Position numbers and translations under genes: made by a program. From the NCBI RefSeq assembly GCF_000012925.1, contig NC_007517.1:3060001-3092000 (forward strand): 32,000 nucleotides of DNA, read 5' to 3'. Below the pieces are notes generated by a model. That model ran no database searches. It saw only the letters and a list, made by a program, of their open reading frames with translations, and was not told where the DNA came from. Positions within the stretch are counted from its first letter, which is position 1. Each line of letters opens with the position of its first letter. This document shows positions 17,250-25,585 of the stretch, one piece after another. The stretch is from Geobacter metallireducens GS-15 (lineage in GTDB: Bacteria > Desulfobacterota > Desulfuromonadia > Geobacterales > Geobacteraceae).

Positions 17250-19286
17250 TCAGGAAAGTTTCTCCCGCATCCGGGCGAAGAAATCCTGGGCCATGGCCTC
17301 CTGCTCCTCCTCGGTGGCGGCCTTCTTCACCTCACCTTCATGAACTTGCACGAGCCGCTCCGGAATCTCCTCCAGGAAGCGGCTCGGCTGCCGCTCCAGG
17401 AGCTTGCCGTACTTCTTCCGGTGGAGGCAGCGGGTTATGGTGAGGTGCCGGCGGGCCCGGGTGATCCCCACGTAGCAGAGGCGCCGCTCCTCGTCGATGC
17501 TCATCCCCTCCTCCACGGACTTCTTGTGGGGGAGGATCTCCTCCTCGAACCCCACTAAAAAAACGAAGGGGAACTCCAGCCCCTTGCTGGAGTGGAGCGA
17601 CATGAGCGTCACGGCATCCTTGCCATGCTCCTTCTTGTCCTTGCCGCTGAAGCGATCCTCGTCCATGAGGGAGACCTTCTCCAGGAACCCCGAGAGGGTC
17701 GCCCCCGGAATCCTCTCCTCGTACCCCGCCATGGAGTTGATGATCTGCTCCACGTTCTCCACCTTGCGCCGGGCCGTGGCCGGCTCCTCGATGGTACGGT
17801 AGAGCTCCTCCTCAAGGCCGATCCGGTCGTAGAACCCCTTCACCCGCGCCGCCAGATCTCCCGGACGGCGGAACTCCCCGGCCGCGCCCGTGATGAGCCG
17901 GTGGAAGGTCAGGACCTTCTCCCGGGTCGCGCCAGGGATGCCTTCGATCTCCTCCACCCTCCCCATAGCCTCCAAGAGCGGGCATTCGTGCTCCAGGGAC
18001 CACTGGTTGATCTTCACCACGGTCCCGTCGCCGATCCCCCGGCGGGGGAAATTCACCACCCGCAACAGGGCCTGCTCGTCCAGGGGGTTGTCGATCACCT
18101 TCAGGTACGAGAGGGCGTCCTTAACCTCCTTGCGCTCGTAGAACTGCATCCCCCCCACGAGCACGTAGGGGATGTCCTCGAAGCGGAGCTGCTCCTCGAA
18201 GGCCCGGCTCTGGGAGTTGGTCCGGTAGAGGATGGCGAAGTCGCCGAAGGAGAGGTTATGCTGGTAGCGCTCCATCTGGAGCCGCTCCACCACCAGGGTC
18301 GCCTCCTCCTCGTCGTCCTGGGCGATGACCATGTCGATGGGGCGTCCCTCCCCCACATCGGTCCAGAGACGCTTCTCCTTCCGTTTCGCGTTGTTCTTGA
18401 TGACCTGGTTCGCCGCCTCCAAGATCGTGCCGGTGGAGCGGTAGTTCTGCTCCAGCTTCACCACCCGGCACCCCGGGTAGTCCCGCTCGAAGTCGAGGAT
18501 GTTCCCCACGTCGGCCCCGCGCCAGCCGTAGATGGACTGATCATCGTCCCCCACCACGCAGAGGTTGCGGTACTTCCGCGCCAGGAGCGAAATGAAGAGA
18601 TACTGGGAGGCGTTGGTGTCCTGGTACTCGTCCACCATGATATAGCGGAAGCGCTCCTGCCAGTGGTCCAGCACCTCAGGGTAGTCCTGGAGGAGCCGCA
18701 CCGTCAGCATGATGATGTCGTCGAAGTCGATGGCGTTGCAGGCGTGGAGGAGCGCCTGGTAGCGAGGGTAGACGTCGCAGGCCAGGAGCTCGTCGGGATC
18801 GTCGTAGCGGGGGACGGCCCGGTCCGGCGGGATGAGTCCGTTTTTCCAGCCGGAGATCCGCCAGAGGAGCGTCTCGGCGTCGAACTTCTTCCCGTCGGCG
18901 TTCACCTCCCGCATGGCCTGGCGGATGAGGCCGATCTGGTCCGAGGTGGTGTAGATGCTGAAATTCTTCTTGTAACCGAGCCGTTCGATGTCCCGGCGCA
19001 GGATTCGGACCCCCAGTGAGTGGAAGGTGGAGATGACCATCCCCTTGGCCTTGCCACGCCCAACCAGCTCGCGGACCCGCTCCTTCATCTCGCCTGCCGC
19101 CTTGTTGGTGAAGGTGACCGCCAGGATGTCCTCGGCCTTCACCTTCTTGTCGAGAAGGAGGTGGCCGATCCGGTACGTGATGACCCGGGTCTTGCCGGAG
19201 CCGGCGCCGGCCAGGACCAGGAGCGGCCCCTCGGTGTGCTCCGCAGCGGCCCGCTGGGGTGGATTGAGGGTGGAGAGGTCAAGCAT
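17250..19286 (-). CDS. UvrD/Rep/PcrA-family SF1 ATP-dependent DNA helicase
   Basis: GAGSGKT Walker A, DEYQDT motif II, a YRS.. motif and VGITRA near the C-terminus. It is 678 aa long. Confidence 0.93.
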   Translation of the reverse strand: MLDLSTLNPPQRAAAEHTEGPLLVLAGAGSGKTRVITYRIGHLLLDKKVKAEDILAVTFTNKAAGEMKERVRELVGRGKAKGMVISTFHSLGVRILRRDIERLGYKKNFSIYTTSDQIGLIRQAMREVNADGKKFDAETLLWRISGWKNGLIPPDRAVPRYDDPDELLACDVYPRYQALLHACNAIDFDDIIMLTVRLLQDYPEVLDHWQERFRYIMVDEYQDTNASQYLFISLLARKYRNLCVVGDDDQSIYGWRGADVGNILDFERDYPGCRVVKLEQNYRSTGTILEAANQVIKNNAKRKEKRLWTDVGEGRPIDMVIAQDDEEEATLVVERLQMERYQHNLSFGDFAILYRTNSQSRAFEEQLRFEDIPYVLVGGMQFYERKEVKDALSYLKVIDNPLDEQALLRVVNFPRRGIGDGTVVKINQWSLEHECPLLEAMGRVEEIEGIPGATREKVLTFHRLITGAAGEFRRPGDLAARVKGFYDRIGLEEELYRTIEEPATARRKVENVEQIINSMAGYEERIPGATLSGFLEKVSLMDEDRFSGKDKKEHGKDAVTLMSLHSSKGLEFPFVFLVGFEEEILPHKKSVEEGMSIDEERRLCYVGITRARRHLTITRCLHRKKYGKLLERQPSRFLEEIPERLVQVHEGEVKKAATEEEQEAMAQDFFARMREKLS

Positions 19287-19296
19287 AAAAATAATC

Positions 19297-19417
19297 CTCG
19301 AAACGGTTGAATCGGTGCTCCAGACGCACGACAGCCGGGCTGGTCGGCCCGGCTGTCATCATTGATAGCAGAGGTGTCGGGAGAAATGCAAGGGAGCGAT
19401 TACCGTGCCAAGGGAAA
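19297..19417. repeat. Direct repeat copy A (~121 bp) flanking the PEP-CTERM cassette
   Basis: It aligns with 20773-20893 at roughly 85-90% identity by eye. The blocks atcggtgctc, acagccgggctggtcggcccggctgtca, cattgatagcagaggt and gcgattaccgtgccaaggg are identical. Confidence 0.8.
19395..19411 (-). promoter_or_regulatory. Sigma-54-type -24/-12 element inside repeat A
   Basis: The minus strand reads TTGGCACGgtaaTCGCT. The consensus is TGGCACG-N4-TTGCW; the GG-N10-GC spacing is exact and there is one mismatch in the -12 box. It lies ~110 nt upstream of the helicase ATG. Confidence 0.4.
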
Positions 19418-19443
19418 CCGGTTGGAACCATGTCTCCAATGAA

Positions 19444-20283
19444 TTACTTCCGGCGCCTCAGCCACACCACTCCCCCAAGGCCGGCGCCCAGGAGAAGGAA
19501 CGTGGATGGTTCAGGGATCGGGTCTGCCTCCATCGACAGGCCGCGAGAGGTCAGCATGCCGTTGGGAACAACGCTGAAATCGAACATTAAGGCCATCGAA
19601 AACGGATCGACATTGCTAACGCCATAGGGACCGCCGTTGAAACCGAACGAATCATGATCACTGGTTGCTGTATCGCTGAAGCTCGCAACCAGATCTCCCG
19701 AAAGCAGCGAGGCCCAGCCCTGGTCAAAGCTATCAAAATCTGCAAAAAGCACCGGCGCAGGATTCGGATTTCCCAGGGTATCAAATGGAACGAACGGAGC
19801 AGCATACTGCCCGTTGTTGGGATCATTATAATACCCCAGAGCAATAGTCGAGCCTGCCGCATTGGTCCACGTGCCGCTGCCGGTGACGAAAGTGGCATTG
19901 GTCGGCGGCTTGAAATCCGTATCACTGACCACGACGAAAGCGCGACTCGTGGTCCCCCTGGTATTGGTCACGGACGATGACGCGCTGGTGAGGATATTCG
20001 GCTCCAAGTGGGCGGTATGATATGAACCTTGGACAACAAAACCTGGGATGGGCTCAAAATTGTTCCCGAGGAGGATTGCATGAGGATTCGGATCAAGGTC
20101 ACCTGCACCATTGTCCACAATTACCCGACTGTAGAAATTGGTGGGATCGGCGGTGTCATACACGGTCACTCCCACCTGGAGTGTCGACGCCTGTGTCGGA
20201 TTTGACTGAACGAGGACCAGCACTACCATGCCGGCGGCAATTGCCAAGGCTTTACTGGTGAAACTTTTCATCTTCCCATTCAT
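19444..20283 (-). CDS. Secreted PEP-CTERM sorting-domain protein
   Basis: The C-terminus ..DPIPEPSTFLLLGAGLGGVVWLRRRK has the PEP motif, a TM helix and a basic tail. It has an N-terminal signal peptide and a Thr/Ser/Asn/Gly-rich body. I set the start at the ATG at 20283, 5 nt after AAAGGAGAG. GC is visibly lower than in the neighbouring genes. Confidence 0.85.
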   Translation of the reverse strand: MNGKMKSFTSKALAIAAGMVVLVLVQSNPTQASTLQVGVTVYDTADPTNFYSRVIVDNGAGDLDPNPHAILLGNNFEPIPGFVVQGSYHTAHLEPNILTSASSSVTNTRGTTSRAFVVVSDTDFKPPTNATFVTGSGTWTNAAGSTIALGYYNDPNNGQYAAPFVPFDTLGNPNPAPVLFADFDSFDQGWASLLSGDLVASFSDTATSDHDSFGFNGGPYGVSNVDPFSMALMFDFSVVPNGMLTSRGLSMEADPIPEPSTFLLLGAGLGGVVWLRRRK

Positions 20284-20772
20284 TGTCACTCTCCTTTCAC
20301 AAACTGATTTGTACTTCCGATGGGTGTTGTAACGGTCCTCCTTTCCTGTGATTTTGACCCATCCTCACGGGAATGGGTAAGCATCTCAGATATCGACCGC
20401 GTTACGGCAGGTTCATAGTGCCAGCACAGGGTGGTAACAAAGTAAAACAACACAACCAACACAACGGCAACCAAACGGAATTATTGCACTTTTTTCAAAA
20501 TTAAAGTTGCATAATCCAAGCCATGACGTAACATGGCGATTCTTCGCACGTTGAACATTAAAATTGAGCCAACATTAAAATATCATTACACTTTTTGTAA
20601 AATGTCCAGGGCACATCTGTAAGAACCCTCGACACACAGGCATAACTTAATGAAATCACAAGAAATAACGAGCCACGTTAGCTAATTTCAACTAATTGGG
20701 AGATGGGCGCTACATTGGCACATTGGCTTTGTCGTGGGGGGAAGGTCCGGTGAAGGGCTCAGGCATTGGAAT

Positions 20773-20893
20773 CTCGAAACGGCAAATCGGTGCTCAAAAC
20801 GCACAACAGCCGGGCTGGTCGGCCCGGCTGTCACCATTGATAGCAGAGGTATCAGGCGAAATACGAGAAGGCGATTACCGTGCCAAGGGGAAA
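20773..20893. repeat. Direct repeat copy B (~121 bp)
   Basis: See copy A. It begins 13 nt beyond the ypfJ stop codon (20906). Confidence 0.8.
20870..20886 (-). promoter_or_regulatory. Sigma-54-type -24/-12 element inside repeat B
   Basis: The minus strand reads TTGGCACGgtaaTCGCC. The core 16 nt are identical to copy A and the GG-N10-GC spacing is exact. Confidence 0.4.
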
Positions 20894-20905
20894 GGCACCA
20901 TCAAT

Positions 20906-21760
20906 CTACAACGATTGGGCCCCGAAGGTATTGCACGCCCCGAAGTTGCCGGTGTCGAGGCCGGTTTTGAACCAGCGGACCCGCTGCTCGGAGCTGCCGT
21001 GGGTGAAGCTTTCGGGGACGACGTACCCCTGGGCCTGCTGCTGGAGGCGGTCGTCGCCGATGCTGGTGGCCGCCTGGAGCGCCTCCTCCACGTCGCCGCT
21101 TTCGAGAACCTGCCGGCTCCGGTCGGCGTGGTGGGCCCAGATGCCGGCCAGGCAGTCGGCCTGGAGCTCCAGTCGCACCGAGAGCTGGTTCGCCTGGGTC
21201 TTACCGCTCCGCTGCTGGAGGTCGTGGGCCTTCTCCGAAATGCCGAGGAGCGACTGGACGTGGTGCCCCACTTCGTGGGCGATGACGTACGCCTGGGCAA
21301 AGTCCCCCGGCGCCTTGAAGCGCTCCTTCAGGTCCCGGTAGAAGCTGAGGTCGATGTAGACCTTCTGGTCCAGGGGGCAGTAAAAGGGGCCCATGGCGGC
21401 CTGGGCATAGCCGCAGGCCGACTCCACGGCGCCGGTGAAGAGGACCAGCTTCGGCTCCTGGTAGGTCTTGCCGTTCTTCCGGAAGAGCTCGTGCCAGGTA
21501 TCCTCGGTGTCGGCCAGAACCACCGACACAAACTGGGCAAGTTCGTCACTGGCGGGAGGCTTGCCGGCCTGTCTCGTCTCTGTCGGCGCTGTGAGGGGAG
21601 AGCCCCCCTGCTGCAGGACCACCGACGGGTCGATGCCGAAGTACATGGCGACCAGCGCGAGAATGATCGTGCCGATGCCGCCCCCCACCGCCTTCCGGCC
21701 AACGGTCATCCCCCGGCGGTCTTCCACGTTGTCGCTTCTCCGTCCGTCACTCCATCGCAT
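20906..21760 (-). CDS. ypfJ: YpfJ-family putative neutral zinc metallopeptidase
   Basis: N-terminal MRWSDGRRSDNVEDRRG followed by a TM helix, and a HEVGHH zinc motif. The layout is typical of the Zn_peptidase (YpfJ) family. Confidence 0.85.
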   Translation of the reverse strand: MRWSDGRRSDNVEDRRGMTVGRKAVGGGIGTIILALVAMYFGIDPSVVLQQGGSPLTAPTETRQAGKPPASDELAQFVSVVLADTEDTWHELFRKNGKTYQEPKLVLFTGAVESACGYAQAAMGPFYCPLDQKVYIDLSFYRDLKERFKAPGDFAQAYVIAHEVGHHVQSLLGISEKAHDLQQRSGKTQANQLSVRLELQADCLAGIWAHHADRSRQVLESGDVEEALQAATSIGDDRLQQQAQGYVVPESFTHGSSEQRVRWFKTGLDTGNFGACNTFGAQSL

Positions 21761-21844
21761 GGCAAGGCACTCCTGTCATGGTCTGCCGATTGAATGCACA
21801 CGGGGCGCGGATAACCCCCATGAACCATCCGCGCCCCGTGTCAG

Positions 21845-23041
21845 CTATTTCTTTGTCACCCGGACGTCGATCCTTCTGTTCTGCTGCCGTCCTTCCTCCG
21901 TGGCGTTGTCGGCAACCGGATGCTCCTCCCCGTACCCTTCGGATTCAAGGCGGGAGGGATCGATGCCCAGCTTCACCAGTTCCTGCATGGTGTTGCTTGC
22001 CCGGTCCCGGGAGAGCTTGAGGTTTGCTTGGGGATCACCCACGTTGTCGGTGTAGCCGCCGATCTTGATGGCCACCTGGGGGAACGCCTTGAGGATCGCG
22101 GCGATATTGCCGAGTTGCTCCTGGGATGAAGGCTTCAGCACGGCGCTGCCGGTCTCGAACTGGAGCCGGTCGAAGGTGAACCAGGTGGTCTTGTCCACGG
22201 GTCTCGCCCCATCCTGGATGAAGGCGAGGAGCTTCCGCTCGATGCCGAATTCGGGAATGTTCAGGGTGACGCCGTCGGGGAGCGTCACATCACCGAAGGC
22301 TCCCAGCTTCGGATCAACCTTGACGGCCGGTGCCTGCACTTGGGGCGGCGCCGGCTGGATTGCCGGAGTCTTCATGGAGCAGCGCTGGGGCAATGTGTAC
22401 AGGAGGAAGGCAACCACGATGCCGGCCAGAATCCAGACGATCTTCGAGAGGGGGCCGGAGAAGAGGGCGCTGGGGCACGCGCCGCCCCCGAGGCCCGACA
22501 GGCTGGAGAGGCCGAGCAGGCCGGCCAGTCCCGCCGGGGCGGCCTGTTGCAGAAATGGCCCCTGGCCTTCCAGGAGCCCCGAAAGCCCCACCGCCCCCAG
22601 ATCCTTCTCCTGTGCCTCCTTGCCGATCTTCCCCATGACGAAGGGGGCCAGGAGAGCCAGCAGCGACTGGGCGCTCCCCTTTCCGAGGCCGCTCACGGAC
22701 GACAGCCACTCCGCAACCCCGCCGGCCCTGTTGCCGAGGAGCGAGCCGACGAGGGAGTTTCCCTGCTCCAGGAGCCCCTTGGTCGCCTCACCCCCTGCCA
22801 GTGACGCGGCCATCCCCGAGAGGGTATTCTCCCCGAACCCGCCGGAGCGGACCTGACCGAGAATCTGCGACGCACCGTCCGTCGACACACCCTTTGCCGC
22901 AACCCCACCCACCAATGCCGAGAGGGCAGCCGGCACCCCCTTCTGGACGGCCGGCGTTCCCTCCCCCAGAAAATGGCCGATCTGCCCCACTAGGTCACTG
23001 GTAAACATCCCGCTAAGCTGCTCCAACAGGTTCGTCGCCAT
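21845..23041 (-). CDS. DUF937-like N-terminal domain / TM helix / C-terminal OmpA-MotB peptidoglycan-binding domain protein
   Basis: The C-terminus GYTDNVGDPQANLKLSRDRA..NRRIDVRV is a canonical OmpA_C-like domain. The Gly/Ala/Leu-rich N-terminal half starts MATNLLEQL. I set the start at the ATG at 23041, behind an AAGGAGGG RBS. Confidence 0.85.
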   Translation of the reverse strand: MATNLLEQLSGMFTSDLVGQIGHFLGEGTPAVQKGVPAALSALVGGVAAKGVSTDGASQILGQVRSGGFGENTLSGMAASLAGGEATKGLLEQGNSLVGSLLGNRAGGVAEWLSSVSGLGKGSAQSLLALLAPFVMGKIGKEAQEKDLGAVGLSGLLEGQGPFLQQAAPAGLAGLLGLSSLSGLGGGACPSALFSGPLSKIVWILAGIVVAFLLYTLPQRCSMKTPAIQPAPPQVQAPAVKVDPKLGAFGDVTLPDGVTLNIPEFGIERKLLAFIQDGARPVDKTTWFTFDRLQFETGSAVLKPSSQEQLGNIAAILKAFPQVAIKIGGYTDNVGDPQANLKLSRDRASNTMQELVKLGIDPSRLESEGYGEEHPVADNATEEGRQQNRRIDVRVTKK

Positions 23042-23233
23042 GGCTCCCTCCTTGTGACGTGGCAATCACCACTATTCGCGCCGTGTCCGGCAGTGACAAT
23101 TAAAACATACTTATTGCGACATTCAATCCTTTCGAGGTTTTAGCGAAAAGTCGCGTCCTTGTACCCTGCTCTACCGAAAACCAGAGGCGCCTGTAACCAA
23201 TCCCTGCACAGCCCTGTTAACCATCCCGACAAA

Positions 23234-25585
<2,352 letters not shown>

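Follow-up and report, generated by a model that had tools for sequence, protein, structure and literature searches.

Two similar intergenic sequences of the Geobacter metallireducens GS-15 genome, Gmet_R0126 and Gmet_R0127, form a two-member family that was annotated as '2 predicted short RNAs' (Aklujkar 2009, PMC2700814 Table S4, Figure S8o). R0126 is located 3′ of Gmet_2725 and 5′ of the UvrD-superfamily helicase gene Gmet_2724, and R0127 is located 3′ of the zinc metallopeptidase gene Gmet_2726 and 5′ of Gmet_3623 (PMC2700814; the locus tags of the helicase, R0126 and R0127 are those of its Table S4). At the orthologous site in Geobacter sulfurreducens, before GSU0891.1, an RpoN-dependent promoter was predicted as 'Promoter 37' (Leang et al. 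2009, PMC2725144). Here we analysed a 32,000-nt stretch of the G. metallireducens chromosome (NC_007517.1, positions 3,060,001 to 3,092,000; hereafter the window, numbered from its first nucleotide) that contains both sequences. We conclude, with a probability of roughly 75%, that a foreign cassette carrying the PEP-CTERM protein gene Gmet_2725 was inserted into the 5′ end of the helicase gene with duplication of the helicase control region in the G. metallireducens lineage. The published pair comprises the same sequences, but it was not described as a duplicated helicase control region around a lineage-specific insertion, and no empty sites were shown.

Target-site duplications of transposons are typically 2-14 bp long, and a single crossover of a circle leaves the region of homology duplicated on either side of the insert. 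Host sequence is likewise doubled around the insert in G. metallireducens, but the repeat measures ~145 nt, and neither a transposase nor terminal inverted repeats accompany it: apart from short open reading frames (ORFs), the PEP-CTERM gene is all that the insert encodes, and the only inverted repeats are the hairpins inside the two copies. The locus shares with Campbell-type and attL/attR-flanked integrations a long imperfect direct repeat (~145 nt) around foreign DNA and a disrupted gene that keeps a functional end; unlike attL/attR elements, the insert comes without an integrase or a tRNA gene, and the substitutions do not resemble those of two hybrid sites. No integrase or recombinase lies beside the repeats, and no excisionase, tRNA gene or other mobility gene was found in or beside the insert, in line with the absence of an integrase or transposase stated in an original prediction that had been made from the letters of the window (the genes present are ypfJ, the PEP-CTERM gene and the helicase gene). 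The locus also differs from an integron cassette, in that its palindrome is the conserved stem of the helicase leader, is present in two copies and has no integrase, a comparison made without running an attC covariance model. Fork stalling and template switching/microhomology-mediated break-induced replication (FoSTeS/MMBIR) offers the likeness of a duplicated segment with unrelated DNA at the junction, a strong hairpin in the duplicated unit and a 17-nt patch of seemingly templated helicase sequence in the cargo gene, although we infer the mechanism in G. metallireducens from topology.

Stringent local alignment delimited a direct repeat pair on the minus strand, copy 1 (R0126) and copy 2 (R0127; Table 1), with ~87% identity and two indels of 1 nt and 4 nt, and an ungapped repeat search recovered 19310-19417 against 20785-20892 at 88% identity. 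No repeat pair of this kind is expected by chance, and the window has exactly two occurrences of the 26-nt hairpin core compared with 0.00 expected from shuffles; the longest perfectly matching block between the copies is 28 nt. The ypfJ, PEP-CTERM, helicase and DUF937/OmpA genes are all encoded on the minus strand. The original prediction had described direct repeats bracketing a low-GC PEP-CTERM cassette between ypfJ and the helicase gene and had explained them by insertion with duplication of the intergenic region or by an excisable cassette. The repeat search, the local alignment and the hairpin core count bear out the repeats, but not their proposed helicase-side limit at 19297: the repeat continues for another 28 nt, across the ribosome-binding site (RBS) and the ATG into the helicase ORF, of which it includes the first 18 nt. 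The remnant of the helicase ORF in copy 2 reads ATGCCTGAGCCCTTCACC, where the corresponding helicase sequence is ATGCTTGACCTCTCCACC. Thus, the duplication stands, whereas the duplicated unit is not simply the intergenic region but the helicase promoter/leader plus the first 18 coding nucleotides. An extension of the repeat to the ypfJ and PEP-CTERM stop codons, by which the whole intergenic region would have been duplicated, was rejected (1190 of 5000 shuffles gave an equal extension).

A single element directly before the helicase ATG was found in eight other Geobacter loci (L019, L020, L021, L037, L065, L066, L067 and L069), none of which contains a second copy; the possibility that all relatives have the two-copy arrangement therefore falls away with eight of eight being single-copy. 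Clean empty sites, consisting of ypfJ, one element and the helicase gene, are present in Geobacter grbiciae (L019), Geobacter hydrogenophilus (L020) and the metagenome contig L065, which is the arrangement that the original prediction had proposed to look for by synteny. In L065 the spacing from the ypfJ stop to the element is as short as at copy 2, and BLAST showed the window to be continuous with this contig from ypfJ through copy 2. Four of the eight relatives have ypfJ upstream and lack the PEP-CTERM gene (L019, L020 and the two metagenome contigs L065 and L021); L021 has GDSL lipase, PLD and dodecin as cargo at this site instead, with an unduplicated leader. G. grbiciae and G. hydrogenophilus are also the nearest named relatives by YpfJ protein (95 and 92%, respectively), and neither they nor L065 have the PEP-CTERM gene at this site. 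The insert showed no similarity to the loci of the relatives, and no second cassette copy was found in the window or in those loci. On these comparisons, the 1.33-kb insert is specific to the G. metallireducens lineage.

The two copies have diverged asymmetrically. Copy 1 is 95% identical to the element of G. grbiciae and 93% to that of G. hydrogenophilus, compared with 89 and 82.5% for copy 2, and polarisation with five close orthologues assigned 11 derived substitutions to copy 2 and none to copy 1. Two states of the hairpin loop (G and C) are common to both G. metallireducens copies and occur in no relative; therefore, the duplicate was probably made from resident sequence. Copy 2 has lost the TTG of a -35-like box and the helicase ORF and carries a 4-nt deletion in the RBS region. 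The asymmetry between the copies fits a copy 1 that is under strong constraint and runs the helicase and a copy 2 that has been freed from most of that constraint. The decay of copy 2 is uneven: its changes fall in 1 of the 42 columns that are invariant in nine orthologues, compared with 14 of the 75 other columns (p = 0.01). In copy 2 neither the sigma-54-type motif nor the TATCAAT box nor the hairpin has been lost, so activity toward the cassette may persist.

The insert extends from 20748 to 19418 (1331 nt), with 465 nt in the AT-rich region, 840 nt in the PEP-CTERM gene and 26 nt in the tail. Gmet_2725 resembles exosortase-sorted PEP-CTERM proteins in its C-terminal PEP motif, hydrophobic helix and basic tail (PF07589, 28.5 bits with a cut-off of 20.7; TIGR02595, 26.9 bits with a cut-off of 16), whereas its passenger part could be placed in no described family. 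Its N-terminus, which is hydrophobic and ends in ..QA, is signal-like and, by inspection of the alignment, is kept across the homologues. Among 5.8 billion proteins there are only seven other homologue clusters (eight in all), each of them on short metagenomic contigs and with a long upstream gap of ~0.6 kb. With a GC content of 0.548 and a third-position GC content (GC3) of 0.61, the gene has the lowest GC3 of the real genes of the window (0.74-0.92 for the rest), and the spacer has a GC content of 0.41-0.44. The low GC content claimed for the cassette is hence confirmed against the local flanks but not genome-wide for the PEP-CTERM gene: because G. metallireducens genes have a mean GC content of 59.5% with a standard deviation of 5.9% (PMC2700814), 54.8% is unusual only in comparison with the GC-rich neighbours. 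Among the genes of the insert, only the spacer ORF Gmet_3623 (47.5%) appears in the published low-GC list (PMC2700814). The AT-rich spacer contains a predicted 62-aa ORF on the minus strand (20286-20474), which is probably the manually added gene Gmet_3623. No plasmid or phage carrying the cassette was matched in our searches, and the AT-rich spacer has no Rfam match.

Unrelated PEP-CTERM genes are located between radical-SAM and acylphosphatase genes in G. hydrogenophilus L020 (1154-1882), in L022 (884-1615) and in L066 (1579-2220), and the same gap is empty in the G. metallireducens window. A shift of the PEP-CTERM gene by ~5 kb from that gap was rejected, as the proteins are unrelated save for the sorting signal. 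PEP-CTERM genes seem to have been gained repeatedly in the neighbourhood of the helicase locus, judging from these gene contents.

We identify the repeated element as a conserved control region upstream of the PcrA/Rep/UvrD-type helicase gene, with a probable promoter and leader role, because of its position, its conservation and the published computational prediction. It contains a sigma-54-type -24/-12 motif, a TGnTATCAAT box, an 11-bp GC hairpin, an RBS and a start codon (Table 1). The motif of copy 1, TTGGCACGGTAATCGCT, fits the G. sulfurreducens RpoN consensus TTGGCACGGTTTTTGCT (PMC2725144) at 14 of 17 positions, and its GC element stands within TTGGCACGGTAATCGC. The GG and GC at canonical spacing are invariant across nine orthologues (TGGCA...T.GC), and conservation does not extend 5′ of the motif in relatives whose neighbours differ; a loose sigma-54 pattern is expected to match 0.37 times by chance over the whole window. 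Promoter 37 of G. sulfurreducens occupies the same position before the orthologous 680-aa helicase (the 2043-nt span of GSU0891.1 fits a 680-aa product, the length of the helicase orthologue in L067), and its motif CTGGCACGAATATCGCC is identical to that of Geobacter anodireducens L067 and aligns with TTGGCACGGTAATCGCT. It differs in having CGC rather than TGC as its -12 element, and it is a PromScan prediction that falls outside the primer-extension-verified set of PMC2725144. Another candidate sigma-54 site in the AT-rich spacer (CTGGCACTATGAACCTGC) was set aside, since its GG-GC spacing is wrong by eye.

The box TCTGCTATCAAT, 18 nt 3′ of TTGCAT, may belong to a sigma-70-type promoter as its extended -10 element or else to the leader RNA. 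The columns that are invariant in the nine orthologues also yield CTTG-N18-TCTGnTATCA, which could be a sigma-70 -35 box and an extended -10 box. In the hairpin, 98% of cells are paired across 10 sequences, with the stem kept and the loop varying by species; on the helicase-sense strand there are eight G.U cells and one compensatory change. The stem is too invariant for covariation to be informative (265 of 500 shuffles reached the observed score). Compared with shuffles, folding is better for both strands (z = -3.8 and -3.2, gene-sense strand). No intrinsic terminator was called in 19000-21200, and the hairpin is followed by GTGCGTCTGG with no T-run. Across the window, Rfam 15 gave 0 matches at gathering score; when 19100-21100 was searched at E ≤ 10, the best sub-threshold matches reached 17-19 bits with cut-offs of 35-47; neither a tRNA nor a tmRNA was found in the window.

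Table 1. Features of the helicase locus in the window
Feature	Position	Strand	Basis
Repeat copy 1, Gmet_R0126, from just before the sigma-54-type motif to helicase codon 6	19269..19417	-	local alignment, orthologue identity
Repeat copy 2, Gmet_R0127, adjoining ypfJ and ending in the 18-nt helicase ORF remnant	20749..20892	-	local alignment
Insert tail, 26 nt, from PEP-CTERM stop to copy 1	19418..19443	-	outside the significant repeat; identical in L024
PEP-CTERM protein gene, Gmet_2725, 279 aa, insert cargo	19444..20283	-	PF07589, TIGR02595
AT-rich region 5′ of the PEP-CTERM gene, part of the insert, holding the small ORF (probably Gmet_3623)	20284..20748	-	GC 0.41-0.44
Putative sigma-54-type -24/-12 motif TTGGCACGGTAATCGCT, copy 1	19395..19411	-	consensus match and conservation
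Putative sigma-54-type motif TTGGCACGGTAATCGCC, copy 2, intact	20870..20886	-	pattern match
TCTGCTATCAAT box, copy 1	19361..19372	-	TCTGnTATCA invariant in nine orthologues
GC-rich hairpin GACAGCCGGGC-CGACCA-GCCCGGCTGTC, copy 1	19330..19357	-	perfect 11-bp stem
Hairpin core, copy 2, same as copy 1 including the loop	20806..20831	-	exact match
Superfamily 1 DNA helicase gene, PcrA/Rep/UvrD-like, Gmet_2724	17250..19286	-	Pfam UvrD-helicase 3e-92, UvrD_C 1.9e-67
ypfJ, neutral zinc metallopeptidase of the KPN_02809 family, Gmet_2726, to the left of the insertion site	20906..21760	-	PF04228 4.9e-123
DUF937/OmpA protein gene	21845-23065	-	

For the helicase protein, the top NCBIfam matches are pcrA and rep, both under their equivalog cut-offs, and YpfJ matches NF050010 with 396.9 bits (cut-off 250).

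The empty sites, the non-dispersed element and the difference in composition all favour insertion with duplication. In the sequence of events that we propose, a 1.33-kb foreign piece, consisting of the rare PEP-CTERM gene and its own 0.47-kb AT-rich upstream region, would have entered ~18 nt inside the helicase gene, and in the same event or directly after it the ~145 nt just 5′ of the insertion point would have been duplicated. The duplicated stretch would have included the sigma-54-type motif, the TGnTATCAAT box, the GC hairpin, the RBS, the ATG and six codons, so the helicase would have kept a full promoter, leader and start as copy 1. The second copy would have been stranded between ypfJ and the new gene as copy 2 and may still fire toward the cassette. 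Because host sequence lies on both sides of the foreign DNA and inverted repeats, a recombinase or a transposase are absent, we infer a duplicative illegitimate event, in which a single illegitimate recombination or template switch would have produced the duplication without a recombinase; the route would have been a replication template switch or a staggered-break repair that captured a foreign fragment at the duplication junction. The duplicated product presumably survived because an insertion 18 nt inside an apparently important helicase gene needs the promoter, leader and start to be regenerated.

The same cassette lies between the same two leader copies in a related strain (L024, a Logan SRR28820821 contig, 1-1426, aligned to window positions 20851-19384), and this two-copy arrangement is absent from G. 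grbiciae. Because L024 has the whole arrangement, the duplication and insertion predate the split of this strain. Nucleotide identity between L024 and the window is ~91-98% for the PEP-CTERM anchor, the signal-peptide end of the gene and the flanks, 86% for the first 35 codons and 94-98% for the AT-rich region. The interior of its PEP-CTERM gene is 73% identical, with a synonymous divergence (dS) of ~0.96 and a ratio of nonsynonymous to synonymous divergence (dN/dS) of ~0.2, and lacks a 45-nt segment; these values suggest that recombination brought in a deeply diverged allele, rather than that positive selection acted fast. The L024 gene also has an in-frame TAG at codon 13.

An exact 17-mer, TCCGAATCCTGCGCCGG (gene strand), is shared by the helicase ORF (19009-18993) and the PEP-CTERM gene (19768-19752), where it lies in a 15-residue insertion that is unique to the GS-15 allele among eight homologues. 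Any 17-mer common to the cassette and the rest of the window was obtained in 5 of 2000 cassette shuffles. Because helicase orthologues carry the same stretch, the helicase gene is the source, and the 17-mer may be a templated patch copied from this neighbouring gene. It hints, as a small independent sign, at template switching at the locus.

Several points weigh against insertion with duplication within the lineage. The copies differ at 15 of 117 core positions, and at three of them the state of copy 2, not that of copy 1, agrees with G. grbiciae. Measured against G. grbiciae, synonymous divergence amounts to 0.04 for the DUF937/OmpA gene, 0.10 for ypfJ and 0.21 for the helicase gene, and because it jumps from 0.04-0.10 to 0.21 across the insert, the history is blurred by later recombination; a small chance remains that copy 2 was imported rather than duplicated within the lineage. 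The genome-wide count of two copies rests on the 2009 paper (PMC2700814) and not on a genome scan. No donor sequence for the cassette was found against which the junctions of the proposed single event might be compared for microhomology. With regard to the promoter assignment, no start-site or RpoN chromatin immunoprecipitation data were found for Gmet_2724-2726 or GSU0891.1, for which the literature gave microarray values only, and the sigma-70-like site was not called by a simple promoter scan.

A separate observation concerns the ~2 kb at window positions 21700-23785 (the DUF937/OmpA gene and the start of ypfJ), which are ~100% identical to G. grbiciae L019, whereas the helicase side is 91-97% identical. 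This mosaic indicates a recent homologous exchange with G. grbiciae that apparently stopped near the cassette. Because of the mosaic identity and later homologous exchange, fine dating of the insertion is impossible.

Integration of the Campbell type, in which a circle carrying the cassette and a helicase-leader homologue, for example from another Geobacter strain, recombined with the resident leader by a single crossover, predicts exactly the observed topology. The 13% divergence of the copies is approximately that of leaders from different species, the mosaic identity to G. grbiciae indicates frequent homologous exchange, and the deep L024 allele (dS ~0.96) between near-identical flanks implies that the interior of the cassette was exchanged by recombination at least once. 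A crossover within the leader should have generated hybrid copies; however, all 11 polarisable changes are in copy 2, on both sides of the hairpin, copy 1 is orthologous throughout, and the G. metallireducens-specific hairpin loop is present in both copies. The scenario also needs a donor in which the cassette already lay beside a helicase leader, and thus accounts for spread but not for origin, and no such donor, plasmid or phage copy was found. We therefore regard it as unlikely.

It is less probable still that the repeats are two working small regulatory RNA genes or cis-acting RNAs whose similarity is kept by selection and whose position around the cassette is incidental. Such a function would agree with the published annotation, with the folding of both strands, with a hairpin that tolerates G.U changes on the sense strand and with substitutions in copy 2 that avoid deeply conserved columns. 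The repeat, however, spans the RBS, the ATG and 18 coding nucleotides, none of which a small-RNA gene needs, and in all eight relatives it is a single copy that is always at the helicase start, as expected of a 5′ control region. There is no match to an Rfam family even at E = 10 and no intrinsic terminator call, and the empty sites are left unexplained, so that RNA activity would at best add a function to copy 2.

That the two-copy state with its cassette is ancestral, as an old excisable segment that the relatives lost by recombination between the repeats, is very improbable. Although such a deletion would give the single-copy state of L065 and the copies (15 of 117) have diverged at least as far as species have from one another, this history demands at least eight independent losses, including the G. 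anodireducens/sulfurreducens outgroups, compared with one gain. In addition, the cargo has an atypical GC3 and an extremely narrow distribution, and the loop states are common to the G. metallireducens copies only. The comparison covered twenty G. metallireducens-type contigs from many sequencing runs, and every one that reaches far enough to show the site has the cassette; no excised or empty-site form was found among the G. metallireducens-type assemblies examined. Together with a longest identical block of only 28 nt between the copies, this leaves the excisable cassette of the original prediction unsupported, even though recombination between the copies would bring back a site like that of L065.

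In 185,579 species genomes, a scan for the hairpin pattern matched G. hydrogenophilus once and Geobacteraceae GEOBC once; all its other matches were single chance ones in unrelated taxa. The scan returned neither G. metallireducens nor G. grbiciae, both of which bear the hairpin, so its negatives do not extend to the GS-15 genome. The possibility, raised in the original prediction, that the repeat is a common dispersed element is thus opposed by the published two-member family (PMC2700814) and by a scan without further family copies. A dispersed repeat family (repetitive extragenic palindromic (REP) sequence, miniature inverted-repeat transposable element or similar) that happens to occur twice here is hardly credible, for in spite of the strong palindrome and the many multicopy intergenic sequences for which this genome is known (PMC2700814), the window has only two matches and G. 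hydrogenophilus one (REP-like elements occur in many copies per genome), matches beyond chance elsewhere are confined to GEOBC, the position before the helicase gene is fixed and orthologous in eight relatives, and no terminal inverted repeats bound the cassette.

Upstream of the element, the neighbours vary: ligA directly in L066 and L069, the DUF937/OmpA gene and ypfJ in L019, L020 and L065, an S8 peptidase gene in G. anodireducens (L067) and a 310-aa ORF in Geobacteraceae GEOBC (L037). The space between ligA and the helicase leader has a different gene content, including none, in nearly every Geobacter lineage examined, and by this comparison is an apparent hotspot where genes are gained and lost. 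We attach only a low probability to the further idea that the hairpin-bearing helicase leader is a preferred entry point for new genes throughout Geobacter, with an entry in G. metallireducens that was uniquely downstream of the promoter. Entry would then be due to hairpin-provoked fork stalling and template switching or to a trans-acting recombinase, and, if this were true, the duplicate sigma-54 promoter and hairpin, whose conserved columns are avoided by substitutions, would have been retained and would wire the newly acquired PEP-CTERM gene to the regulatory signal of the helicase.

Insertion of a foreign cassette with duplication of the helicase control region is a clear but ordinary gene gain by a known kind of event, and it involves no new mobile element, recombinase or RNA class. 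New in this analysis are the empty sites, the identity of the element as a helicase control region, the asymmetric decay of the copies and the lineage-specific, compositionally distinct cargo. The locus offers a clean, datable example of a horizontally acquired gene placed inside the 5′ end of a housekeeping gene that was not destroyed, because its promoter, leader and start codon were duplicated. RpoN control of a PcrA/Rep/UvrD-like helicase would be unusual, if true, and the motif is conserved across Geobacter. For R0126 and R0127, a duplicated helicase control region replaces the label 'predicted short RNAs', and the region between ligA and the helicase gene is marked as variable across Geobacter. 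The practical value lies in annotation and in studies of the regulation of the helicase or of PEP-CTERM proteins in G. metallireducens.

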